Positions 1,761 to 62,129 are shown, counted from the first letter of the stretch. The stretch is 64,000 nt of DNA from an uncultured Eubacteriales bacterium (GCA_948443845.1 CAOJUE010000003.1:25610-89609), one strand, 5' to 3'. A program made the numbers and translations. Notes: generated from the letters alone by a model not told the origin.

Positions 1761-3848
1761 TTGAATTTTCGATATAATGTTCTATCGATTTTAGTGTATG
1801 TGATAGGAGTTGTCATATTAATTACATTATTTAATATTCAAATTGTCAATGGACAAGAATATCGAGAAAATTCCAATACAAGATTATCCAGAAAAGCCAC
1901 CATTGAAGCAGCAAGAGGCAACATTGTAGATCGCTATGGCAATACTTTAGTTAGTACCGACATGGATTTTTCCATTGAAATGTACAAAACCAAAGTCGAT
2001 GACGAGCAACTCAACAAATCCATTCTATGGATGACCACCATTCTCGAAAACAATGGCGATAGTTACATCGACGATTTCCCAATCAGCATCAATCCATTTC
2101 AGTACAATTTTGAGTCAGATGAAAAGTTAAAAGAATGGTTAAAAAAATACAAAATTCCAGAAACCGCCTCAGCAGAAGAAGCATTTTATTTAATGCGCGA
2201 CAAATACAAAATCAAAACAGACGACATAAATGACATCAGACGAATTCTAGCCATTCGCTATGGAATCTCCACAACCGGATATTCTACAACCAAATCCATT
2301 AGCATTTCGAATAAAATTTCAAGAGAAAGTGCGATTCAGTTGCAGGAAAGAAGCGAGGAATTGACGGGCGTGAATATTGTCATCGAGCCAGTTCGAAAAT
2401 ATCATGTTGGAAGCATGGCTTCGCATATTGTAGGATATATGGGAAGAATTGGCAAAGAAGATTTGGAGGAATTAGAAGAAAAAGGCGATGATTATCCTTA
2501 CAAAACCACAGACAAAATCGGAAAAACGGGTATCGAAAAAGTATTCGAAGAATACTTAAGAGGCGAAGATGGCGAAAAACAAATCGATATGTCAGTTGAC
2601 GGAACGATTACAGGAGAATATACTTCCAAAGAAGCCATCGGCGGTTCTGATGTGGTATTAACCATTGATTCCAACTTACAACAAATCACAGAAAATGCAC
2701 TTTCTGCTAATATTCAAAAAATAAAAGCTGGTGGTTTTTCAGAAAGGTATGATGCCAAAGGTGGTGCGGTCGTTGTTACAAACGTAAAAACAGGAGAAAT
2801 CTTAGCGATGGCAAGCAATCCAGACTACGAGCCAGCACTATTTTATAATGGAATTAAACAAGAAAAATACGACGAATATAGAAATAACCCATTAAAACCG
2901 TTGAACAATCGAACCATCTCAAGTGCTTATGCGCCAGGTTCCACGTTTAAAATGGTTACAGCAATTGCGGCGTTGGAAACAGGTGTAACCAACACAGTAG
3001 AAAAAATTAATGACAATGGACCCTATCCAGCAGCTAATCGTCCGGCGTGTTGGTATTGGAATAGCTATAAAAGAGGGCATGGTCCGCTAAATGTGGTTGG
3101 TGCGATTGAAAAATCGTGTAACTATTTTTTCTACGAAGTTAGCAACCGAATGGGAATTGACAATTTGGAAAAATATACAAGATATTTTGGACTAGGTCAA
3201 AAAACAGGAATTGAACTCTATAACGAAAGAGCAGGAACAGTAGCCAACCGAACTATCACAGAAAGCAAAAACACACCATGGATGATAGGAGATACTTTGT
3301 CTGCAGCCATTGGTCAAGGTTACAACAACTTTACGCCAGTGCAAATGGCAAAATATATTTCGATGGTTGCCAATGGTGGACATAAAATTGACTTAAGCAT
3401 TGTGAAAAGTGTGATTAAATCAGACGGAACTCAAATTCCTGATTCAGAAATCAGGCAATTTACCGATCAAAAATTAGGCATTGAGCCAGATACCACAGAA
3501 GATTTACAAATCAACCCAGACACGATGAGAGCTGTATTAGAAGGAATGAGAGCTGTTACAGAAGGAGAAAGTGGAACAGCGCGTTCAATATTTGCTGATT
3601 TTGATATTTCCGTTGGCGGAAAAACAGGTTCAGCAGAAGTCAATACAGGTGACGTAAATGCGTGGTTTGTGGGGTTTGCACCATTTGAAGACCCAGAAAT
3701 TGCGGTTGTCATTATCGTAGAAAATGGCGGACATGGTTATTATACCGCAGAAGTTGTTAAAGAAATTATTGCAGAATATTTTGGCATGAATGTCAAACAA
3801 ATATCAGAAAATATGAATGCTGAAAATGAAACCGAACGTTTTACCTAA
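1761..3848 (+). CDS. mrdA: penicillin-binding protein 2 (peptidoglycan D,D-transpeptidase, elongasome PBP)
   Basis: N-terminal TM, PBP dimerisation region, transpeptidase motifs STFK, SCN, KTGS. Confidence 0.85.
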   Translation: MNFRYNVLSILVYVIGVVILITLFNIQIVNGQEYRENSNTRLSRKATIEAARGNIVDRYGNTLVSTDMDFSIEMYKTKVDDEQLNKSILWMTTILENNGDSYIDDFPISINPFQYNFESDEKLKEWLKKYKIPETASAEEAFYLMRDKYKIKTDDINDIRRILAIRYGISTTGYSTTKSISISNKISRESAIQLQERSEELTGVNIVIEPVRKYHVGSMASHIVGYMGRIGKEDLEELEEKGDDYPYKTTDKIGKTGIEKVFEEYLRGEDGEKQIDMSVDGTITGEYTSKEAIGGSDVVLTIDSNLQQITENALSANIQKIKAGGFSERYDAKGGAVVVTNVKTGEILAMASNPDYEPALFYNGIKQEKYDEYRNNPLKPLNNRTISSAYAPGSTFKMVTAIAALETGVTNTVEKINDNGPYPAANRPACWYWNSYKRGHGPLNVVGAIEKSCNYFFYEVSNRMGIDNLEKYTRYFGLGQKTGIELYNERAGTVANRTITESKNTPWMIGDTLSAAIGQGYNNFTPVQMAKYISMVANGGHKIDLSIVKSVIKSDGTQIPDSEIRQFTDQKLGIEPDTTEDLQINPDTMRAVLEGMRAVTEGESGTARSIFADFDISVGGKTGSAEVNTGDVNAWFVGFAPFEDPEIAVVIIVENGGHGYYTAEVVKEIIAEYFGMNVKQISENMNAENETERFT

Positions 3849-3856
3849 AAAGGAGG

Positions 3857-4474
3857 ATGTCAATGTTAAACAATATAAGAATCAAACAAACCACAGAAGA
3901 AATTGTTTTAAATGTCAATGCGCAAACCGATAATACAGAAATATTTGAAGAATTACAAGAAAAATTGCCCAAATTGAAGGAATTTTATAAAAACTCCAAT
4001 GTTCCCATTCGAGTTGCGGGAAAATTATTCACGGAAACTGGGCGAAAAAAAATTGCTCAAATGATTGTTGAGGAAATTGATGTACAAGTCAAATTTGATG
4101 AACCATCTGATCTTTTGGGTTTGCATGCCATTAAAAAAACATTTGAAGCCGAAACAGAAATTTCGGAGACAAAATATGTCTATAATTCCATTCGTTCTGG
4201 AACGAAAGAAGAATACGTTGGGAGTCTAGTTATTTGTGGTGATGTAAATTCTGGTGCAGAAGTGGTTGCAGGTGGAAATATTATTATTTTGGGAACTTTG
4301 CGAGGTGTTGCACACGCAGGTGCAAATGGCAATAACAAAGCCATTATTGCAGTCAACACAATCGAAACAACTCAAATTAGAATATCGAATTTGGTAAAAG
4401 AAGTTGTTGAAAAAGAAGAAAGATGTCCGATTTTTGGCATCAAAAATGACAACATCGAAATGCTAAAAAATTAG
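3857..4474 (+). CDS. minC: septum site-determining protein MinC
   Basis: C-terminal MinC beta-helix motif GDVNSGAEVVAGGNIIILGTLRGVAHAG; no minD/minE follow it. Confidence 0.8.
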   Translation: MSMLNNIRIKQTTEEIVLNVNAQTDNTEIFEELQEKLPKLKEFYKNSNVPIRVAGKLFTETGRKKIAQMIVEEIDVQVKFDEPSDLLGLHAIKKTFEAETEISETKYVYNSIRSGTKEEYVGSLVICGDVNSGAEVVAGGNIIILGTLRGVAHAGANGNNKAIIAVNTIETTQIRISNLVKEVVEKEERCPIFGIKNDNIEMLKN

Positions 4475-4897
4475 CAAAAATAAAATGAGCATTAAAATAA
4501 AATCGTAATTTGAATCTTTTAAAAACTGAAAAGAATGTTTCTCATCTAAAGAATCTAGAACAGATAGAAGGTTGGCAATCTTCATATATTGTTCTAGTTT
4601 TTCTTTTTTGGTGTCTTCTAAATAAGGCTTCAAAGATTTGAGTAACTGGTTTCTAGGTCCATTTTGATTGTTCATACTACCCATAATATTTTTGATTTTC
4701 AAAATTGTGTTAATATCAAATGAAAAATCATCACCAGACTTCTCATCAGTAGGCGGATTTTCTCCGCCCAAGATGTTATTTAGGTCGATGTCTTTTTCTT
4801 TTAAAATTTCTGAAAAATTATTTAAAATGTTAGAAAAATCTTCATTCATATACAAATAGTCGATGCCCCTTTCTGCTGATTTAATCTTTTTTATCAA
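4463..4897 (-). CDS. hypothetical protein (C-terminal hydrophobic segment)
   Basis: 144-aa ORF on the opposite strand after minC; no recognisable domain. Confidence 0.4.
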   Translation of the reverse strand: MIKKIKSAERGIDYLYMNEDFSNILNNFSEILKEKDIDLNNILGGENPPTDEKSGDDFSFDINTILKIKNIMGSMNNQNGPRNQLLKSLKPYLEDTKKEKLEQYMKIANLLSVLDSLDEKHSFQFLKDSNYDFILMLILFLLIF

Positions 4898-52393: not shown

Positions 52394-53452
52394 ATGGATA
52401 AGAAAAAAGATTGGAATTTAGAGTTATCAGAATATATTAAACAAGGCGAACCAAATCAAGTTGAGAAAACTAAAACATGGGAAACAGCGATTGGATTGCA
52501 AGATGTTGATGGATTAAAACCTTCAAAATATTTAATAAAAACTGCTAAAGAACATATTGAAGGATCAATAGATATTGAAGAAGTCAAAGCAAGAATAGAT
52601 GAATATTATGAAGTTCAAGGCAGCAGAAAAGATTTTGAAAAAGAAAATGAAGAAGCAGATAAAGTTGCAGTTAGAATAACAGAAATATTAAGCGAAAAAG
52701 CATTCAATTTTTCTCCTACAGAACTATTGAGTATTCATAAGAGATTATTTAAAGATATATTTGATGGAGCAGGTGTATATAGAGATTATAATTTTACTAA
52801 AAAAGAATGGGTATTAAATGGAGATACAGTGATATATGCACCATTTGATACAATAAAAGAAACATTGGAATATGATTTTGAACAAGAAAAAACCTTTTCA
52901 TATAAAGGATTAAATTTAGATGAGTCTATAAGTCATCTATGCAAATTTACATCAAATATATGGCAAGTACATCCATTTTGTGAAGGCAACACAAGAACAA
53001 CAGCAGTATTTATGGTAAAATATCTAAGAACTTTTGGATTTAATATTAATGATGAAGTATTTGCAGAAAATTCATGGTATTTTAGAAATTCATTAGTAAG
53101 AGCCAATTATAAAAATTTTGAAAAAAATGTATTTGAGGATACATCATTTTTAGAAAAATTCTTTTATAACTTACTTACAAATGCTAATAATGAATTAAAA
53201 AATAGATATACACATATAGATAATATTCAAAGTGCAGAAAATGACAATTTAAAGTGCAATAATTACACTTTAGAAGAACAGGCAATTATAAATATATTAA
53301 AGAAAACCCCTGCTACTACACAAGAAGAAATAGCAATGCAAATTAATAAATCTTTAAGAACTGTAAAAACATATATGGCAGAAATGCAAGAAAAAGGGTT
53401 GATAGAAAGAATAAATGGTAAGAAGAATGGCGAATGGATAGTGAATGAGTAA
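52394..53452 (+). CDS. Fic family protein with a degenerate active-site motif (HPFCEGNTRT) and a C-terminal HTH
   Basis: Fic core HPFCEGNTRTTA (G-to-T and R-to-A relative to the HxFx(D/E)GNGRxxR consensus); C-terminal winged-helix region. Confidence 0.8.
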   Translation: MDKKKDWNLELSEYIKQGEPNQVEKTKTWETAIGLQDVDGLKPSKYLIKTAKEHIEGSIDIEEVKARIDEYYEVQGSRKDFEKENEEADKVAVRITEILSEKAFNFSPTELLSIHKRLFKDIFDGAGVYRDYNFTKKEWVLNGDTVIYAPFDTIKETLEYDFEQEKTFSYKGLNLDESISHLCKFTSNIWQVHPFCEGNTRTTAVFMVKYLRTFGFNINDEVFAENSWYFRNSLVRANYKNFEKNVFEDTSFLEKFFYNLLTNANNELKNRYTHIDNIQSAENDNLKCNNYTLEEQAIINILKKTPATTQEEIAMQINKSLRTVKTYMAEMQEKGLIERINGKKNGEWIVNE

Positions 53453-54674: not shown

Positions 54675-55499
54675 ATGATGAAGTTAGAAGAATATATTGA
54701 AAAACGAAAAAAAGAAGATGGATTGAATGAATTTGATAAAAATAAGAAAGATGAAAACATCAAAATATGTGTAAATTATATTTTTGAGTATTTTAATAAT
54801 TATTTAAATATTACAGAATTAGAAGAAATAACAATAGCTAAGGAAGAAAAGTTAGATAAATATTGCAAGCAATTAAAAGAGTATGACTCAGATATAAAAG
54901 AATGGCTAGTAAAGATATATGCTGAATATGGGAACTTTTTGGATAAATCAATAGGTAGAAGAGTTAGAAATGAACAAACTTATTTTTATTTGCTAAGTGA
55001 AGATAGTGAATTCAGAAGTTTATCTTATGAGTGTTATGCTGAATATATAAAGAAATTTCCATATTTAAAAGGACAAGAAGAGATGTTATACAAATTTTTA
55101 AAAGAATATCATAGAGTAGAAAGTAATCAATCTTTATGGAATATTCCAATAATAAACGAAGAAATAGATGAGTGGATAGAGACAACGAAAAATAAATATG
55201 GAGTAAACTTGTATCAATTTGCTTCTAATTGGGTAAATTATTTTTTTGATACACCAGAAATATGGGGAACGAAACATAGAAAGAAAAATAATGATGCATA
55301 TAAGGGATATGAATATGATTATAAAAATGGTGATAATTTATTTAATATAGACTCACTATATAGAAATATGCCAAAAAAACCATTTACAAAAGGGAAAAAA
55401 CAAGAATTTGAAATATTACTTATGTATTATTGGTTAAATGATATAGTAGGCGATGATGATAATTATTGGGATGAATATTTAAAAAAATTTGAAAAATAA
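54675..55499 (+). CDS. hypothetical protein, probably co-transcribed with the metallophosphoesterase
   Basis: 274-aa ORF 16 nt downstream; no recognisable domain. Confidence 0.5.
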   Translation: MMKLEEYIEKRKKEDGLNEFDKNKKDENIKICVNYIFEYFNNYLNITELEEITIAKEEKLDKYCKQLKEYDSDIKEWLVKIYAEYGNFLDKSIGRRVRNEQTYFYLLSEDSEFRSLSYECYAEYIKKFPYLKGQEEMLYKFLKEYHRVESNQSLWNIPIINEEIDEWIETTKNKYGVNLYQFASNWVNYFFDTPEIWGTKHRKKNNDAYKGYEYDYKNGDNLFNIDSLYRNMPKKPFTKGKKQEFEILLMYYWLNDIVGDDDNYWDEYLKKFEK

Positions 55500-55575
55500 A
55501 TTTTATAAATTTAAGAAATACTATTGATAAATAAAATTTTTTATAATAAAATGTGACCAAAGGAGGCGAGGTATA

Positions 55576-56019
55576 ATGGTAGATATTAATGAATTAGCAA
55601 ATGAATTTCTTGCAATAGAAAGCATGACACAAAAGAAAGTACAGAAGTTATGCTATTATGCACAAGGTTGGTATGGTGCTATTACACAAAAGAGACTATT
55701 TAATGAACAACTACAAGCATGGGTTCACGGACCTGTTTCGCCTAAATTATATGATAGATTTAAAATGTATGGATATAATAAAATACCTCAAAAAGAATCT
55801 AGAACTACAAATGAAGAATTAAAAGGAATAGTAAAAGAAATATATAGAATATATGGAAAATTAGACGGAGATCAACTTGAAGAATTAACTCATCAAGAAA
55901 TGCCATGGATAAATGCAAGAGAAGGATTAGAAGCTCACGAATCATCAACCAACCCAATAAAATTTGATGATATGGTAAACTTCTTTAAAACAAAACTATT
56001 AGAAGAATCAAATGCCTAA
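55576..56019 (+). CDS. Panacea (DUF4065, SocA/PanA-like) antitoxin-domain protein
   Basis: KLCYYAQGWYGAITQKRLFNEQLQAWVHGPVSPKLY matches the Panacea domain core; overlaps the next gene by 8 nt. Confidence 0.65.
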   Translation: MVDINELANEFLAIESMTQKKVQKLCYYAQGWYGAITQKRLFNEQLQAWVHGPVSPKLYDRFKMYGYNKIPQKESRTTNEELKGIVKEIYRIYGKLDGDQLEELTHQEMPWINAREGLEAHESSTNPIKFDDMVNFFKTKLLEESNA

Positions 56020-56653
56020 ATTTAATGAACAAAAACTAAAGGCTATTCCAGAAGCAAAACCACCAAAGAATAATGTAGTAGGTACATTAAGTAGATTAAC
56101 AGAAGAAAATGCAGGTGAAATTGAAAATAGAAAAATAAAAATATCCTTTGAATTTTTCGATTCTAAAAACAAATATTTTTCATTAGGTGATATAGAAATA
56201 GAATGGTTTTCAGATTTGTTTGAAGAATTAAAAGAATTATCTAAGATTACAAAAAAACAGCTGTTTACGGAATATAAAAAGAAATATAAACCACATCCAT
56301 ATAACAATGAAAAAGCATTAAATTATAAGGATGAGTATTTAACTAATCCTCAATATGATGGAGTACAAATAAGACTGGACAAGTCATCGGGAAGGATACA
56401 TGGTTTTTTTATAGAAAATGTTTACTACATAAGATTTTTAGATAGAAGGCATAATATGTACAATTCAGAGGGATATGGAGGCGTAGTATTTGTACCATTT
56501 CCAAAGACAATAGTAGAAAAATTAGAAGATGAAAATAAAGAACAAAGACAGAAAATTATTTTTTTACAAGAAAGAAATGAAAGAAATGCAGAAATTTTAT
56601 GTAATAATTGCTTAAACTGTCCGAAAGAAATACAGAATAAATTTGAATTATAG
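56012..56653 (+). CDS. putative toxin partner of the Panacea antitoxin (unknown family; possible HEPN-like Rx5H)
   Basis: Translationally coupled to the upstream Panacea gene; RFLDRRH candidate motif; 213 aa. Confidence 0.45.
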   Translation: MPKFNEQKLKAIPEAKPPKNNVVGTLSRLTEENAGEIENRKIKISFEFFDSKNKYFSLGDIEIEWFSDLFEELKELSKITKKQLFTEYKKKYKPHPYNNEKALNYKDEYLTNPQYDGVQIRLDKSSGRIHGFFIENVYYIRFLDRRHNMYNSEGYGGVVFVPFPKTIVEKLEDENKEQRQKIIFLQERNERNAEILCNNCLNCPKEIQNKFEL

Positions 56654-56677
56654 GATGAGGCAACTCATCTTTTTTTC
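56654..56677 (+). terminator. rho-independent terminator
   Basis: gatgag-gcaa-ctcatc hairpin followed by a T8 run, directly after the stop. Confidence 0.7.
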
Positions 56678-56890: not shown

Positions 56891-57101
56891 GTCAATTTCA
56901 TTTTTCTATAAAAAATTACTTCGATATTCTAGAAACACAAATATTTCGTAAATTAAAATTCTTATAAATACTTAAATGCCACTCAAAACATAGAAGAAAA
57001 ATCTTTTATGTTTTATTTTTTGCAGATTTTTTAGAAAAATGGGTTCAAAAATAGTCTTTAAGTGAGGAAACATATGAAGGAAATTTAAAAAATTAAAAAA
57101 G

Positions 57102-57480
57102 ATTTCAATTTACTAACAAGAAATGCTACCCTAAAGTGCTTTATAAGTAGAGGGGTATTTTTCAAAAAATAAAAAAATTTCTAAAATAACCTAAAAAATG
57201 GTGTGTGAAAGTGCTTTACAAGTAGGGGGAATATATTTTTTCTAAAATATATAAAAAATTTCAATTTACTAACAAGAAATGCTACCCTAAAGTGCTTTAT
57301 AAGTAGAGGGGGATTTTTCAAAAAAATAAAAAAATTTCTAAAATGACTTAAAAAATGGGGTGTGAAAGTGCTTTACAAGTAGGAGAGATATATTTTTTTC
57401 TAAAATATATAGGAAATTTTAAATTAGGGGTAAAAAACGTATGTCTAAATTGCTTTACAGTTAGAGGGGTAAATTTTTTA
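57102..57480. repeat. tandem direct repeat, ~157-bp unit x2.4; each unit has two copies of a GTGCTTTAYAAGTAGRGGGG + T-run submotif (5 submotif copies in total)
   Basis: Units at 57102 and 57258 are about 95% identical; submotif starts at 57136, 57211, 57293, 57368 and 57450 (spacing 75/82 nt). Confidence 0.8.
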
Positions 57481-57979: not shown

Positions 57980-59683
57980 ATGAAAAGAGTTCGATGTTTA
58001 TATAGAGTATCAACTGTGAAACAGTTGGATAAAAACGACATTCCAATGCAAAGAATTGAATGTATGAAATATATAGAAATGATGTCAGATTGGGAATTTG
58101 ACAAAGAATACATTGAGAAAGGCGTATCAGGCTACAATAAAAAATTGGAAGACAGAGATGTTTTGCAAGAAATCCGAACCGATGCTATCAAGAAAGAATT
58201 TGATGTTTTGCTAGTATTTATGTTTGATAGGCTCGGAAGAAGAGATGACGAAACTCCTTTCATTGTAGAATGGTTTGATGAACACGGTATCGAAGTATGG
58301 TCGACGCAGGAAGGTCAGCAAAAGTTCGAATCACGAGCAGACAAATTGATCAACTATATAAGATATTGGCAATCTGGTGGCGAAAGCGAAAAAACTTCGA
58401 TAAGGGTTCGAACAAAGCAAAGGCAAATGATTGAGCAAGGCATTAATATCAGTTCCGTTCCTCCTTATGGTTATAGAATGATCAAAACTGGAATTCTCAC
58501 GAAACGAGGTGTGGAGCGAAAAACGTATGAAATCGTGCCGACTGAGGCAGAAATTGTAAGAAAAATATTTGATTTATTTACCGAAGAGGGCTATGGCGGA
58601 ATGCGAATTGCCAAATACCTGAATGAGAAAGGATACAAAACGCACAAAGGTTGCGAGTGGAGTTACAGCACGATTAATAATATGCTTCGAAATCCAATTT
58701 ACACAGGATATTTGTGTTTTCACAAAACGAGTGTGCCAATTGGTGGTGGAAAGCGAAAAAGAGTGTCTAATAGAGAAGATTGGATTTATTCAACGGATAA
58801 AATTCCAGAAATTCAAATTATCTCAGAAGAACAATTTGAAAAAGTGCAAAAAATCAAAAAGGCAAGATGTGATAAAAATAAACAATGTGAAGAAGAAAAT
58901 AAGGAATGTTTCAGTTATCAAACCAAAGGAGATATGCTTTTTACTGGGCTGATTGTGTGTGGTGGTTGTGGCTCGAAACTAACGACTAGAACCTCGAAAA
59001 GAACAATAAAATTGGAAGATGGAAGCAAAGGATATACAAGATATAAATATTATATGTGCAGTCATAAGGCTTGTGGCAGGGAGTGCAGTTGTCAGAAGAA
59101 AAGTCATAAAAATAATTGCATAGAAGAACCTGTTTTGAATGAAATTTACAAATATTTTGATTTACTAGAAAAACGAGATTTGTCAGAATACATAAGAAAA
59201 ATTCATAAAAATACAAATGATAACGAAGGAAAGCAAATTAAAGAATTGGAGAAAAATATAAAAGAATATGCCAATAAAAATGATTTGCTAAAAGAAGAAA
59301 TTATGAATGTGATAACAGGGAAAAGTACGTTTTCGCGAGAATTAATTTCTGAATTAATGGAAGAAAATAAACAAAAGATAGAAGATTTTCAAAAACAAAA
59401 GATAAGATTAGAGCAGTTAAAAAAGCAAAAAGAAGTAGATTTTGAACAAATGCTAAAAATGAAAAGTATGATTCCAGATTGGAAAGAAGTTTTAAAAAAT
59501 TGTAGTATAGAAAGGAAAAAAATGATATTATCAGCGATGATAAAAGAAATTATCGTTTATGATCAAAAAATCGATATTCATTTAAGAATTAGTTTTGACG
59601 AATTCTTGCGAACAGCACAAAAACTGGGTTCTGAGAAGAATAGCAAATTTGCTAAAAACCTGTGTAACACGAGAACCAATTAA
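57980..59683 (+). CDS. large serine recombinase (TnpX/TndX-type)
   Basis: Resolvase N-domain with catalytic Ser in RVSTVKQ; recombinase domain; Cys-rich zinc ribbon CGGCGSKL...C..C; coiled-coil C-terminus. The last 4 codons lie beyond the att core. Confidence 0.85.
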   Translation: MKRVRCLYRVSTVKQLDKNDIPMQRIECMKYIEMMSDWEFDKEYIEKGVSGYNKKLEDRDVLQEIRTDAIKKEFDVLLVFMFDRLGRRDDETPFIVEWFDEHGIEVWSTQEGQQKFESRADKLINYIRYWQSGGESEKTSIRVRTKQRQMIEQGINISSVPPYGYRMIKTGILTKRGVERKTYEIVPTEAEIVRKIFDLFTEEGYGGMRIAKYLNEKGYKTHKGCEWSYSTINNMLRNPIYTGYLCFHKTSVPIGGGKRKRVSNREDWIYSTDKIPEIQIISEEQFEKVQKIKKARCDKNKQCEEENKECFSYQTKGDMLFTGLIVCGGCGSKLTTRTSKRTIKLEDGSKGYTRYKYYMCSHKACGRECSCQKKSHKNNCIEEPVLNEIYKYFDLLEKRDLSEYIRKIHKNTNDNEGKQIKELEKNIKEYANKNDLLKEEIMNVITGKSTFSRELISELMEENKQKIEDFQKQKIRLEQLKKQKEVDFEQMLKMKSMIPDWKEVLKNCSIERKKMILSAMIKEIIVYDQKIDIHLRISFDEFLRTAQKLGSEKNSKFAKNLCNTRTN

Positions 59684-59685
59684 TT

Positions 59686-59975
59686 TAACCCCTCGATGGG
59701 TTCACTTTGACGACAGAACAACAGCAGCAGGCTATCCAACAGTTCGTTATGGTAGTAAAGGAAATTATGTCTGTGTAGCACAAGATTCATTAAATGCTTT
59801 AGGCTATGGAACAGGAGGACTAGATGGCATATTTGGAACACAAACCAGAAATGCAGTTTTAACTTTCCAGAGCAGAAATGGCTTATCAGCAGATGGAATC
59901 TTAGGACCAAATACTTGGAGCAGATTGATGCCACAAGTAAATGGGATTGGAAGAGCTAGTACAGTTGTGAATTAA
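59686..59975 (+). pseudogene. 3' part of the insertion-disrupted peptidase M15 / PG_binding_1 cell-wall hydrolase gene
   Basis: In-frame WVHFDDR (M15_3 C-terminal motif), then the PG_binding_1 domain GYGTGGLDGIFGTQTRNAVLTFQSRNGLSADGILGPNTW. No start of its own; continuous with 41263-41638 across the att core. Confidence 0.6.
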
Positions 59976-60301: not shown

Positions 60302-61441
60302 TCAAATCAATTTTTCAGCAACTTCCCTAGCGTCTTTATCTAATTTTAGGACATTTTCAATGCTCGAAATTTCAAGAGATGGATAGTGATTTAGTGTCTT
60401 CTCCAAAATCTCTGGAATATCCACAAATTTTATTTTTTTATCTAAAAATGCTTGCACGGCAATTTCATCAGAAGCGTTTAGAATAATTTGCTTACCTAAA
60501 TTTCCGGCACAATCGTATGCCAATTTGAGACATTTGAATTTTTCGAAATTTGGTTTTCGGAAAGTAAATGTTGGCATGTTAAAAATGTCCAATTTTTCAA
60601 CTGTATTTTCCAATCTGTTTGGATAATCAAGTGCATAGGCAATTGGAATTTCCATCGATTTTGGACCAATATTTGCCATAATGGTTCCATCACAAAATTG
60701 GACCATCGAATGAATTAGACTTTGTGCATGCACAACTACTTGAATTTTTTCCTTTGGCACGCCAAACAAATACATTGCCTCTATCACTTCAAATCCTTTA
60801 TTCATCATAGATGCAGAATCAATCGTAATTTTTGCACCCATTGACCAAGTTGGATGATTTAAAGCCTGTTCAGGTGTGATTTTGTCTGTTATTTCTTTGT
60901 CAAAGAATGGTCCGCCAGATGCAGTTAGCAAAATTTTATCAATCGGATTGTTTGTTTCGCCATTCAGACATTGCATAATCGCACTATGTTCGCTATCAAC
61001 TGTCAAAAGTGTTGCATGATATTTTTTTGCTGCCTCAATAATTAGATCCCCGCCAGTTACCAGCACTTCCTTATTTGCCAAAGCAATGATTTTTCCAGCT
61101 TGAATCATATGATACGTTGGTTTCAAACCTGCAATTCCAACCAAAGCAGACACACCAATATCATAATCCGTAAGACGAGATATTTCGTCCATGCCTTCTT
61201 CATCACAATAAATATCTAAGTTTGGAAACGTATTTTTTAGAGTTTGTGCATTTTCTGCAGAAGAAATATAAACATGTTTGGGGTTAAATTCTTTGATTTG
61301 TTCAATTAATTTCGTAATATTTTTTCCAGCCACTAAAATGGAAATTTCAAATTTATCACGATGCGTACGAACAACATTTAAGGTGCTTGTTCCAATCGAA
61401 CCTGTGCTACCAAAGATAGCAATTCTTTTTAAATCAGCCAT
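60302..61441 (-). CDS. dxr: 1-deoxy-D-xylulose 5-phosphate reductoisomerase
   Basis: N-terminal MADLKRIAIFGSTGSIGTSTLNVV NADPH-binding motif; the ORF track's upstream extension (to 61693) is unlikely to be translated. Confidence 0.85.
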   Translation of the reverse strand: MADLKRIAIFGSTGSIGTSTLNVVRTHRDKFEISILVAGKNITKLIEQIKEFNPKHVYISSAENAQTLKNTFPNLDIYCDEEGMDEISRLTDYDIGVSALVGIAGLKPTYHMIQAGKIIALANKEVLVTGGDLIIEAAKKYHATLLTVDSEHSAIMQCLNGETNNPIDKILLTASGGPFFDKEITDKITPEQALNHPTWSMGAKITIDSASMMNKGFEVIEAMYLFGVPKEKIQVVVHAQSLIHSMVQFCDGTIMANIGPKSMEIPIAYALDYPNRLENTVEKLDIFNMPTFTFRKPNFEKFKCLKLAYDCAGNLGKQIILNASDEIAVQAFLDKKIKFVDIPEILEKTLNHYPSLEISSIENVLKLDKDAREVAEKLI

Positions 61442-61559
61442 AAAAGTCCTCCTTAATATTAATATTTTCATTATATAATGATGAGAAATCTCTGTCAAGA
61501 AATAAAGGAGTATTTTTTTCGTTTGCCAGAATATATATAAATAAGTTTTGGAGGAATTT

Positions 61560-62129
61560 ATGGGATTTTTAGAAACCATTTTATTAAGCGTAGCGCTTGC
61601 CATGGATGCTTTTGCAGTGGCGATTTGCAAAGGTTTGGCAATGGCAAAAATGAATTGGAAAAAAGCTGTTATTATCGGCTTATATTTTGGCATTTTCCAA
61701 GCACTTATGCCAATGATAGGTTATTTTTTAGGAAGCAGATTTGAAACAATTGTAACAAGTATTGACCATTGGATAGCCTTTATTCTATTAACCATAATTG
61801 GTGGGAAAATGATAAAAGATGCTTTTGAAAATACTTGCCCCAATTGCGACGACGACACCAGCCCTAAATCCATGCTCATGCTTGCAATTGCTACTAGTAT
61901 TGATGCTTTGGCGGTAGGAATTATGTTGGCGTTTTTGAATGTTAATTTGATACTGGCAACTAGTTTGATTGGGGTGATAACATTTGCGTTGGCAATAGTA
62001 GGTGTAAAAATTGGCAATATTTTTGGTGATAAATATGAGAAAAAGGCGGAACTCGTAGGTGGTTGTATTTTGATTTTAATGGGAATTAAGATTTTGTTGG
62101 AACATTTGGAAATTGTGATGATTTTTTAA
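61560..62129 (+). CDS. mntP: manganese efflux pump MntP (DUF204)
   Basis: [22 protein letters not shown]... two-repeat DUF204 membrane protein; RBS ggagga. Confidence 0.75.

Follow-up and report, generated by a model that had tools for sequence, protein, structure and literature searches.

Do a Panacea-domain gene and the small gene that overlaps its 3' end constitute a toxin-antitoxin (TA) module, and if so, what kind of toxin does the second gene encode? We addressed this question for a locus in a stretch of 64,000 nucleotides (nt) from an uncultured Eubacteriales bacterium (GCA_948443845.1, CAOJUE010000003.1:25610-89609). This whole stretch is referred to as the window, and positions are counted from its first letter. 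The locus comprises two open reading frames (ORFs) on the plus strand, panA at 55576-56019, encoding 147 amino acids (aa), and panT at 56012-56653, encoding 213 aa. The same coordinates and an overlap of 8 nt had been given in the original prediction, and both were confirmed by ORF calling and reading of the sequence. The ATG of panT (56012-56014) lies within the stop region of panA, whose TAA occupies 56017-56019. The resulting overlap ATGCCTAA (56012-56019, plus strand) implies that translation of panT may be coupled to that of panA. The first ORF includes KLCYYAQGWYG...AWVHGPVSP and the second YYIRFLDRRHNMY. We conclude that the pair is an intact two-gene toxin-antitoxin-like module on an integrated mobile element. 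As a whole, it is best explained as a PanA-PanT module of the catalogued cluster T1 in which PanA neutralizes a RelE-like, RNA-cleaving PanT, a reading to which we assign a probability of roughly 70%.

The upstream gene had been identified as DUF4065/Panacea, with a match to the DUF4065 profile as the test. PanA matched PF13274 (SocA_Panacea) with an E value of 3.9e-20 and 73.3 bits, compared to a cutoff of 25.7. The Pfam envelope covers residues 22 to 111, the Panacea domain core (55639-55908, plus strand). No other Pfam domain was detected in the Pfam scan; therefore, panA (55576-56019) encodes a standalone antitoxin of 147 aa without an N-terminal helix-turn-helix, PAD1, or ZBD domain. When compared to the NCBIfam model SocA_antitoxin (NF047745), it scored 54 bits, which is below the SocA equivalog cutoff of 190.

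That the downstream gene is a conserved, translationally coupled partner of PanA was borne out by the recurrence of the same arrangement elsewhere. A Panacea gene followed by the toxin gene was observed in all 101 evaluable related loci, representing many taxa. A Panacea ORF stood directly upstream in 11/11 metagenomic loci and in 11/11 IMG/VR viral contigs. Scanning GTDB with a narrower wide-family alignment yielded 142 relatives, the best 80 of which were examined at the locus level; they represent Firmicutes and numerous filamentous Cyanobacteria, together with isolated cases, e.g., Sulfuricurvum and Victivallales. Here, a Panacea homologue was located directly upstream and on the same strand in 79/79 evaluable loci, the remaining one (L083) being left out because the contig ends within its toxin gene. 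In an independent Pfam scan, all 89 non-redundant upstream partners matched PF13274 and none matched another Pfam family. Metagenomic relatives (45 to 66% identity) carry a Panacea gene of 145 to 147 aa upstream with the same 8-nt overlap. Loci L001 to L011 and L022 have this identical overlap, and the wider family shows short overlaps or gaps. Because homologues are numerous and none of the relatives inspected departs from the Panacea-then-toxin order, chance does not account for the arrangement, and the PanA-PanT pairing is essentially obligate.

Divergence of the two proteins points in the same direction. Pairwise identities of PanA and of the toxin, compared for 90 pairs, were correlated with a Pearson coefficient of 0.97, a value that none of 500 Mantel permutations reached. 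This fits co-inheritance of cognate pairs, with common descent alone contributing to the correlation. A natural fusion of the two partners was also found. The 335-aa protein P0175, present on five metagenomic contigs, combines a Panacea domain (residues 22 to 114) with a T1 toxin domain (residues 163 to 320) and would lend itself to structural work on the neutralized state. The surroundings of the pair differ from locus to locus. Flanks of the metagenomic relatives include prophage lysis cassettes, integrases, a transposase, and restriction-system subunits, and neighborhood conservation gives no indication of an operon longer than three genes. A local variation on the arrangement was noticed in Hormoscilla, where, in four loci (L030, L033, L054, and L075), the toxin gene is preceded either by two to three Panacea ORFs in tandem or by one of about 316 aa; fragmentary second matches to the toxin domain nearby suggest local duplication of the module.

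In contrast to PanA, PanT (56012-56653) found no match in Pfam or PADLOC, and in PHROGs only weak matches to families of unknown function were obtained. The NCBIfam model NF046006 ("MAG6450 family") was matched with 21.3 bits (E = 3e-4), below its curated cutoff of 40, its 103 positions aligning end to end with PanT residues 46 to 150. Among 82 diverse relatives, 75 matched NF046006 at an E value of 0.01 or less, with a best value of 3.9e-9. By these scores, PanT is best described as a remote relative of NF046006 and not as a member. The MAG6450 name carries no function, because publications refer to the Mycoplasma agalactiae protein solely as a "conserved hypothetical protein". Apart from coiled-coil noise, no Pfam domain appeared for the 82 relatives among the 25 families listed of 94, ranked by the number of members matched. 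Sequence searches against the PDB, with the single PanT as well as with a family profile, returned noise only (e.g., beta-secretase).

The downstream gene had been regarded as belonging to no known family. This holds with respect to Pfam but not with respect to size, as the family is large. A word-index search recovered 45 PanT-homologous clusters at 41 to 100% identity, and an exhaustive profile search recovered 627 clusters (50% identity) at E values of 1e-3 or less, 234 of them at 1e-10 or less. Close relatives of 213 to 222 aa occur in gut and other metagenomes and on viral contigs. A scan of GTDB species representatives with the alignment of this close subfamily gave no match, and neither DNA nor protein matches were found in deposited phage and plasmid records. 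The Rfam scan of the panAT locus yielded only a chance match to a microRNA model, far below threshold.

The proposal that PanT might represent an undescribed PanT family was not sustained. Locus L022 is from Paenibacillus herberti R33, and an exact-sequence look-up identified its toxin ORF as WP_089522514.1. Kurata et al. 2022 (PMC8832971, Dataset S1) pair this protein, as a predicted PanT, with PanA WP_089524501.1 and place it in cluster pT1/T1, with the order A|T and a gap of -8. The geometry that we observed at L022 agrees with this listing. BLASTP aligned the window PanT to WP_089522514.1 with 32% identity over 170 aa (E = 3e-25), and the window PanA is 47% identical to the T1-associated PanA of P. 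herberti. Oscillatoria nigro-viridis PCC 7112, also listed as T1 (Kurata et al. 2022, PMC8832971), comes from the cyanobacterial group that dominates the loci examined here. The T1 rows of Kurata et al. 2022 show PanA without an N-terminal domain (noNTD) and the A|T order (PMC8832971); the window pair has the same pattern, with its PanA lacking such a domain and the antitoxin gene coming first. Since WP_089522514.1 was identified exactly and is homologous to the window PanT, the locus can with high confidence be assigned, on the basis of homology, to the catalogued PanT cluster T1 as a PanAT module. Only the close subfamily of 213 to 222 aa is new, and the locus itself adds a member to a catalogued class.

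Cluster T1 accounts for 217 of 1,268 predicted pairs, compared to 218 for T2/MqsR (PMC8832971). According to SI Table S1 of the same study, its representative WP_074844970.1 from Clostridium cadaveris was toxic in Escherichia coli (PMC8832971). It was assigned to the class "mRNase", and its own PanA failed to neutralize it in E. coli (PMC8832971). It should be noted that the relation of WP_074844970.1 to the window PanT rests on the clustering by Kurata et al. In the literature searched, we found no later paper that characterizes the T1 class, and the T1 accessions that we looked for were absent from the NetFlax supplement.

To what fold PanT belongs was approached by structure prediction. The full-length model (pLDDT of 80.6; predicted local distance difference test) divides into three parts. 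The N-terminal region of about 37 residues (56012-56122, plus strand) is rich in lysine and proline and was modeled with low confidence (pLDDT of 53 to 66). It is followed by a conserved core (residues 38 to 165; 56123-56506) with a predicted RelE/ParE-like topology, and by a long helix (residues 167 to 198; 56510-56605) that DSSP delineated on the model and that resembles a coiled coil. When the core alone was modeled with 123 sequences, the pLDDT increased to 95.4, with a predicted template modeling (TM) score (pTM) of 0.88. The order of elements in this model is a strand (43 to 45), helices (63 to 76, 81 to 85, and 89 to 92), and antiparallel strands (116 to 123, 127 to 134, and 137 to 144). 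This gives a predicted beta-alpha-alpha-beta-beta-beta topology, which is the element order of RelE/ParE-superfamily toxins.

Foldseek comparison of the full model with the PDB placed such toxins in 10 of the top 11 positions, namely, archaeal RelE (1wmi_A), YoeB, YafQ, HigB, RelK, ParE, and Helicobacter pylori 4ltt. For the core model, the top three matches were 8yxv_E, 4ltt, and 1wmi_A, with TM scores of 0.47 to 0.59 normalized on the toxins. All of these matches are weak, with E values of at least 0.084, best probabilities of 0.72 to 0.75, and TM scores of 0.41 to 0.43 normalized on the query. Pfam models of the RelE/ParE clan (ParE_toxin, YoeB, YafQ, and HigB) did not match the window PanT at an E value of 1 or less, and models of this clan were absent from the listed families of the 82 relatives. 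Alignment to E. coli RelE by hhalign gave probabilities of 0.65% (single sequence) and 0.38% (profile); neither is significant, and the test has low power, as the RelE profile is shallow (107 sequences, all at least 68% identical; the RelE sequence was verified against the PDB). In the register of this non-significant alignment, Q119, R121, and R128 of PanT are opposite K52, K54, and R61 of RelE.

Column counts across 123 sequences revealed which residues of the core are most conserved. D144 and H147 are each present in 123/123 members, and together with N148 (112) they form a D144-x-x-H147-N148 signature at 56441-56455 (plus strand). H95 (121), Q119 (118), and R128 (112) follow, and W65, S45, and G127 are likewise conserved, within the range of 112 to 121. 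In the model, the invariant polar residues map to the sheet and the C-terminal loop. This conservation pattern points to an enzyme rather than a mere binding protein, and we regard D144, H147, and N148, together with S45, W65, H95, Q119, G127, and R128, as the candidate active site.

The C-terminal helix is accessory, because it is missing from cyanobacterial members of about 145 aa. It gave leucine-zipper-type Pfam noise matches in 13/82 relatives. At its end lies a cysteine cluster, C197-x2-C200-x2-C203 (56600-56620, plus strand), which stands out by conservation in the close subfamily. C200 and C203 are invariant there and C197 is nearly so, and a CxxC motif within the last 45 aa occurs in 43/43 close members versus 18/119 wider members. 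One may speculate that the cluster takes part in zinc-mediated dimerization.

The conservation data also bear on a different proposal for the chemistry of PanT. The segment RFLDRRH had been suggested to be an Rx4-6H HEPN-like site, according to which PanT would be a HEPN-type RNase. The window PanT does contain R141-x5-H147, and H147 is invariant. However, R141 is kept in only 9 of 123 members (valine in 70) and R145 in 19 (proline in 83), and position 146 is mostly histidine, tyrosine, or leucine; D144 and H147 are the only invariant residues of the segment. HEPN domains are all-alpha. In the model, RFLDRRH is located on beta-strand 137 to 144 and in the loop after it, within an alpha/beta domain, not on an all-alpha helix pair. 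No HEPN match was obtained in Pfam, PADLOC, or Foldseek. The suggested site is thus rejected on motif conservation as well as on modeled secondary structure, and we consider a HEPN-type RNase extremely improbable.

How the module might work can be outlined as follows. The standalone PanA would be made first, and PanT would be translated by coupling through the 8-nt overlap. PanA would bind PanT directly and keep it inactive, by analogy with validated systems of standalone PanA. Upon loss or triggering of PanA, for instance by phage infection, PanT would arrest growth, its RelE-like core (residues 38 to 165) cleaving mRNA or other RNA and thereby inhibiting translation. The C-terminal coiled coil and the cysteine cluster would be accessory and might serve in dimerization or zinc binding. 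In validated systems, PanAs associate with their toxins in complexes (PMC8832971), and standalone Panacea acts by direct neutralization (PMC10440598). A direct PanA-PanT interaction of this type is in keeping with the gene order (antitoxin first), the 8-nt overlap, the co-divergence of the two proteins, and the natural fusion. Whereas gene structure, Panacea identity, obligate pairing, T1 membership, and the shape of the fold model were established here, we infer the toxicity of the window PanT, its direct neutralization, its RNase activity, and the biological role of the pair. The specific assignment of PanT as a RelE-like endoribonuclease that inhibits translation, which we favor on the basis of the fold model and the conserved residues, is given slightly less than an even chance.

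Other readings of the second gene were weighed against this mechanism. A RelE/ParE scaffold need not cut RNA. Proteins of this fold can act by RNA cleavage or by poisoning gyrase (PMC10440598, discussion), and the ParE structures 6x0a, 6xrw, and 8c26 are among the Foldseek matches; PanT could poison gyrase in the manner of ParE or act as some other non-nucleolytic inhibitor. However, the ParE matches rank below RelE, YoeB, and YafQ, the invariant Asp, His, and Asn with the conserved His, Gln, and Arg are typical of an enzyme active site, and Kurata et al. labeled the T1 representative an "mRNase" (PMC8832971), all of which leaves this reading improbable. The likeness to RelE itself could be superficial and the core a new enzymatic toxin fold, such as a nuclease or a nucleotide-modifying enzyme that uses D-x-x-H-N. 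Structural matches with E values no better than 0.08 and TM scores of 0.41 to 0.43 on the query, no RelE similarity at the profile level, no Pfam family match, and a domain of about 128 aa with an extra helical insert, larger than RelE toxins of 85 to 95 aa, are all compatible with such a fold. Nevertheless, RelE-superfamily toxins came out consistently at the top for both models, whereas unrelated matches were scattered, and the modeled order of secondary structure elements agrees with the beta-alpha-alpha-beta-beta-beta expected of them, so that we regard a new fold as unlikely. A wider, speculative version would treat the T1/MAG6450-like domain as either a very divergent, unrecognized branch of RelE/ParE or a new toxin fold, with its own catalytic set (H95, Q119, R128, and D144-x-x-H147-N148), an obligate standalone Panacea partner, and, in the subfamily, the coiled coil with CxxCxxC as a zinc-hook-like dimerization device. 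We hold this combination to be possible but doubtful. If it is true, the target of T1 would provide the mechanism for about one-sixth of the predicted PanAT systems.

It is also conceivable that the pair is not a TA module and that the second gene encodes an effector harmless to its native host, for which PanA is needed as a cofactor, chaperone, or sensor. The sole T1 pair tested was not neutralized by its PanA in E. coli (PMC8832971), Ernits et al. proposed a sensory role for Panacea (PMC10440598), and the existence of a fused PanA-PanT would be unusual if toxin action needs degradation of the antitoxin. Fused toxin-antitoxins such as CapRel, however, work without dissociating (PMC10440598), and the T1 representative was toxic (PMC8832971). 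Moreover, type II TA and abortive-infection modules have the same gene order, size, overlap, and mobility and are likewise placed in prophages and defense islands. We therefore see little chance for a non-TA role and retain the T1 PanA-PanT module as the preferred explanation.

Signals around the gene pair are in line with a separate transcription unit. Upstream of panA, a consensus scan found a promoter-like site at 55524-55552 (plus strand), consisting of TTGATA, a 17-nt spacer, and TAAAAT with 10/12 matches; it is a consensus match only, and such sites are not above shuffled expectation in the region. By direct reading, a Shine-Dalgarno sequence GGAGG was located at 55562-55566 (plus strand), 9 nt before the panA ATG. 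Directly 3' of the panT stop codon, an intrinsic-terminator-like hairpin followed by a T-run lies at 56652-56671 (plus strand), the sole terminator-like site of the scan (1 versus 0.4 expected). With its own promoter-like site and terminator, panA plus panT looks like a self-contained unit.

The module is situated near one end of an integrated element, in a region of defense genes, and the exact window PanT was always found in this same element. The element encodes a topoisomerase, ParB, a Schlafen-like helicase, a KAP NTPase, a pair of DUF6414 and DolB-like AAA proteins, a Fic-wHTH (Fic-winged helix-turn-helix) protein, and a metallophosphoesterase, and its boundary is marked by a large serine recombinase adjoining the host dxr gene. 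Relatives of PanT are located at prophage ends. The module may plausibly serve in phage defense, abortive infection, or stabilization of the element. The 274-aa protein encoded immediately upstream (54675-55499), which matches no family, was considered as a third component and rejected, as it recurs only in L001 to L004, at 93% identity, as part of the element backbone. In L001, an element from a human-gut metagenome, it is encoded at 3666-4490 and is 93% identical to that of the window, whereas the adjacent PanTs share no more than 66% identity, a pattern suggesting that the backbone was conserved while the panAT cargo at this position diverged or was exchanged.

Several neighboring genes were observed in their own right. 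The region at 57980-59975 contains the gene of the large serine recombinase (567 aa), which has Resolvase, Recombinase, and zinc-ribbon domains, and, overlapping the 3' end of this gene, an ORF for a 126-aa protein with a peptidoglycan-binding domain. It lies next to dxr on the opposite strand (60302-61693) and is probably the integration junction of the panAT element. A DUF6414 protein at 50158-51003 (E = 1e-42) overlaps a ClpB-like AAA ATPase at 50984-52123 (PADLOC DolB, E = 1e-136); the pair (50158-52123) looks like a complete Dodola-type defense pair. The Fic-domain protein encoded at 52394-53452 has a C-terminal winged helix and, at its N terminus, a segment with weak similarity to VbhA; in PADLOC, it matched the candidate system PDC-S72 (E = 3e-126). 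Additional defense-like cargo is encoded at 44784-45797 (a NOV_C/DUF3427 protein), at 46435-48408 (a Schlafen group-3-like helicase; E = 2e-103), and at 48766-50037 (a KAP-family P-loop NTPase). A tandem array at 57088-57470, situated between the terminator of panT and the recombinase gene, contains five units of about 37 nt, AAGAAATGCTACCCTAAAGTGCTTTATAAGTAGAGGG, spaced by 75 to 82 nt and arranged as a 156-nt super-repeat (2.2 copies, 91% matches). CRISPR was rejected as an explanation, as the intervening segments are themselves repeated, and the array had no Rfam match; it could serve the mobile element as iterons or as binding sites for proteins.

No class of Panacea-partnered toxins is larger than T1 and the MqsR cluster, which are practically equal in size, yet T1 has no Pfam family, and the sole T1 pair tested is atypical in being toxic but not neutralized (PMC8832971). 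The locus adds an intact, well-delimited T1 member from a gut-associated, AT-rich, Firmicute-like mobile element, and the analysis provides a confident model of the core domain along with a short list of invariant residues for mutation. Its main value is that the claim of an undescribed family is corrected and the HEPN lead removed; a new principle was not revealed.

Compared to known systems, the pair is most readily placed beside T1 of Kurata et al. 2022, with which it shares a standalone (noNTD) Panacea antitoxin first, the toxin second, and the gap of -8. T1 toxins are annotated as "hypothetical protein" without CDD or Pfam domains and occur in Firmicutes, Cyanobacteria, and other phyla. 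The difference from the listed T1 proteins is that the window PanT belongs to the close subfamily with a C-terminal CxxCxxC and does not itself appear in the Kurata table. With the MAG6450 family NF046006, PanT shares an alignment over the full model but scores below the cutoff. SocAB, the type VI TA system of Caulobacter and the founding Panacea system, has an antitoxin with the same Panacea domain as the window PanA. However, the window PanA is under the SocA cutoff, and its partner has no toxin-family match in Pfam, NCBIfam, or PADLOC. SocA is a proteolytic adaptor, in contrast to validated PanAs, which bind their toxins (PMC8832971). The PanT model resembles RelE, YoeB, YafQ, and HigB, its top Foldseek matches (TM scores of 0.54 to 0.59 normalized on the toxin), in its predicted succession of an N-terminal strand, two helices, and an antiparallel sheet of three strands; conserved basic residues and histidines are located on this sheet and in the C-terminal loop. 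Unlike these toxins, PanT has a core that is about 35 residues longer, N- and C-terminal extensions, and no significant sequence or profile similarity to them. Its conserved set (H95, Q119, R128, D144, H147, and N148) is distinct from that of RelE-type toxins, and its partner is Panacea, whereas theirs are RelB, YefM, DinJ, and HigA.
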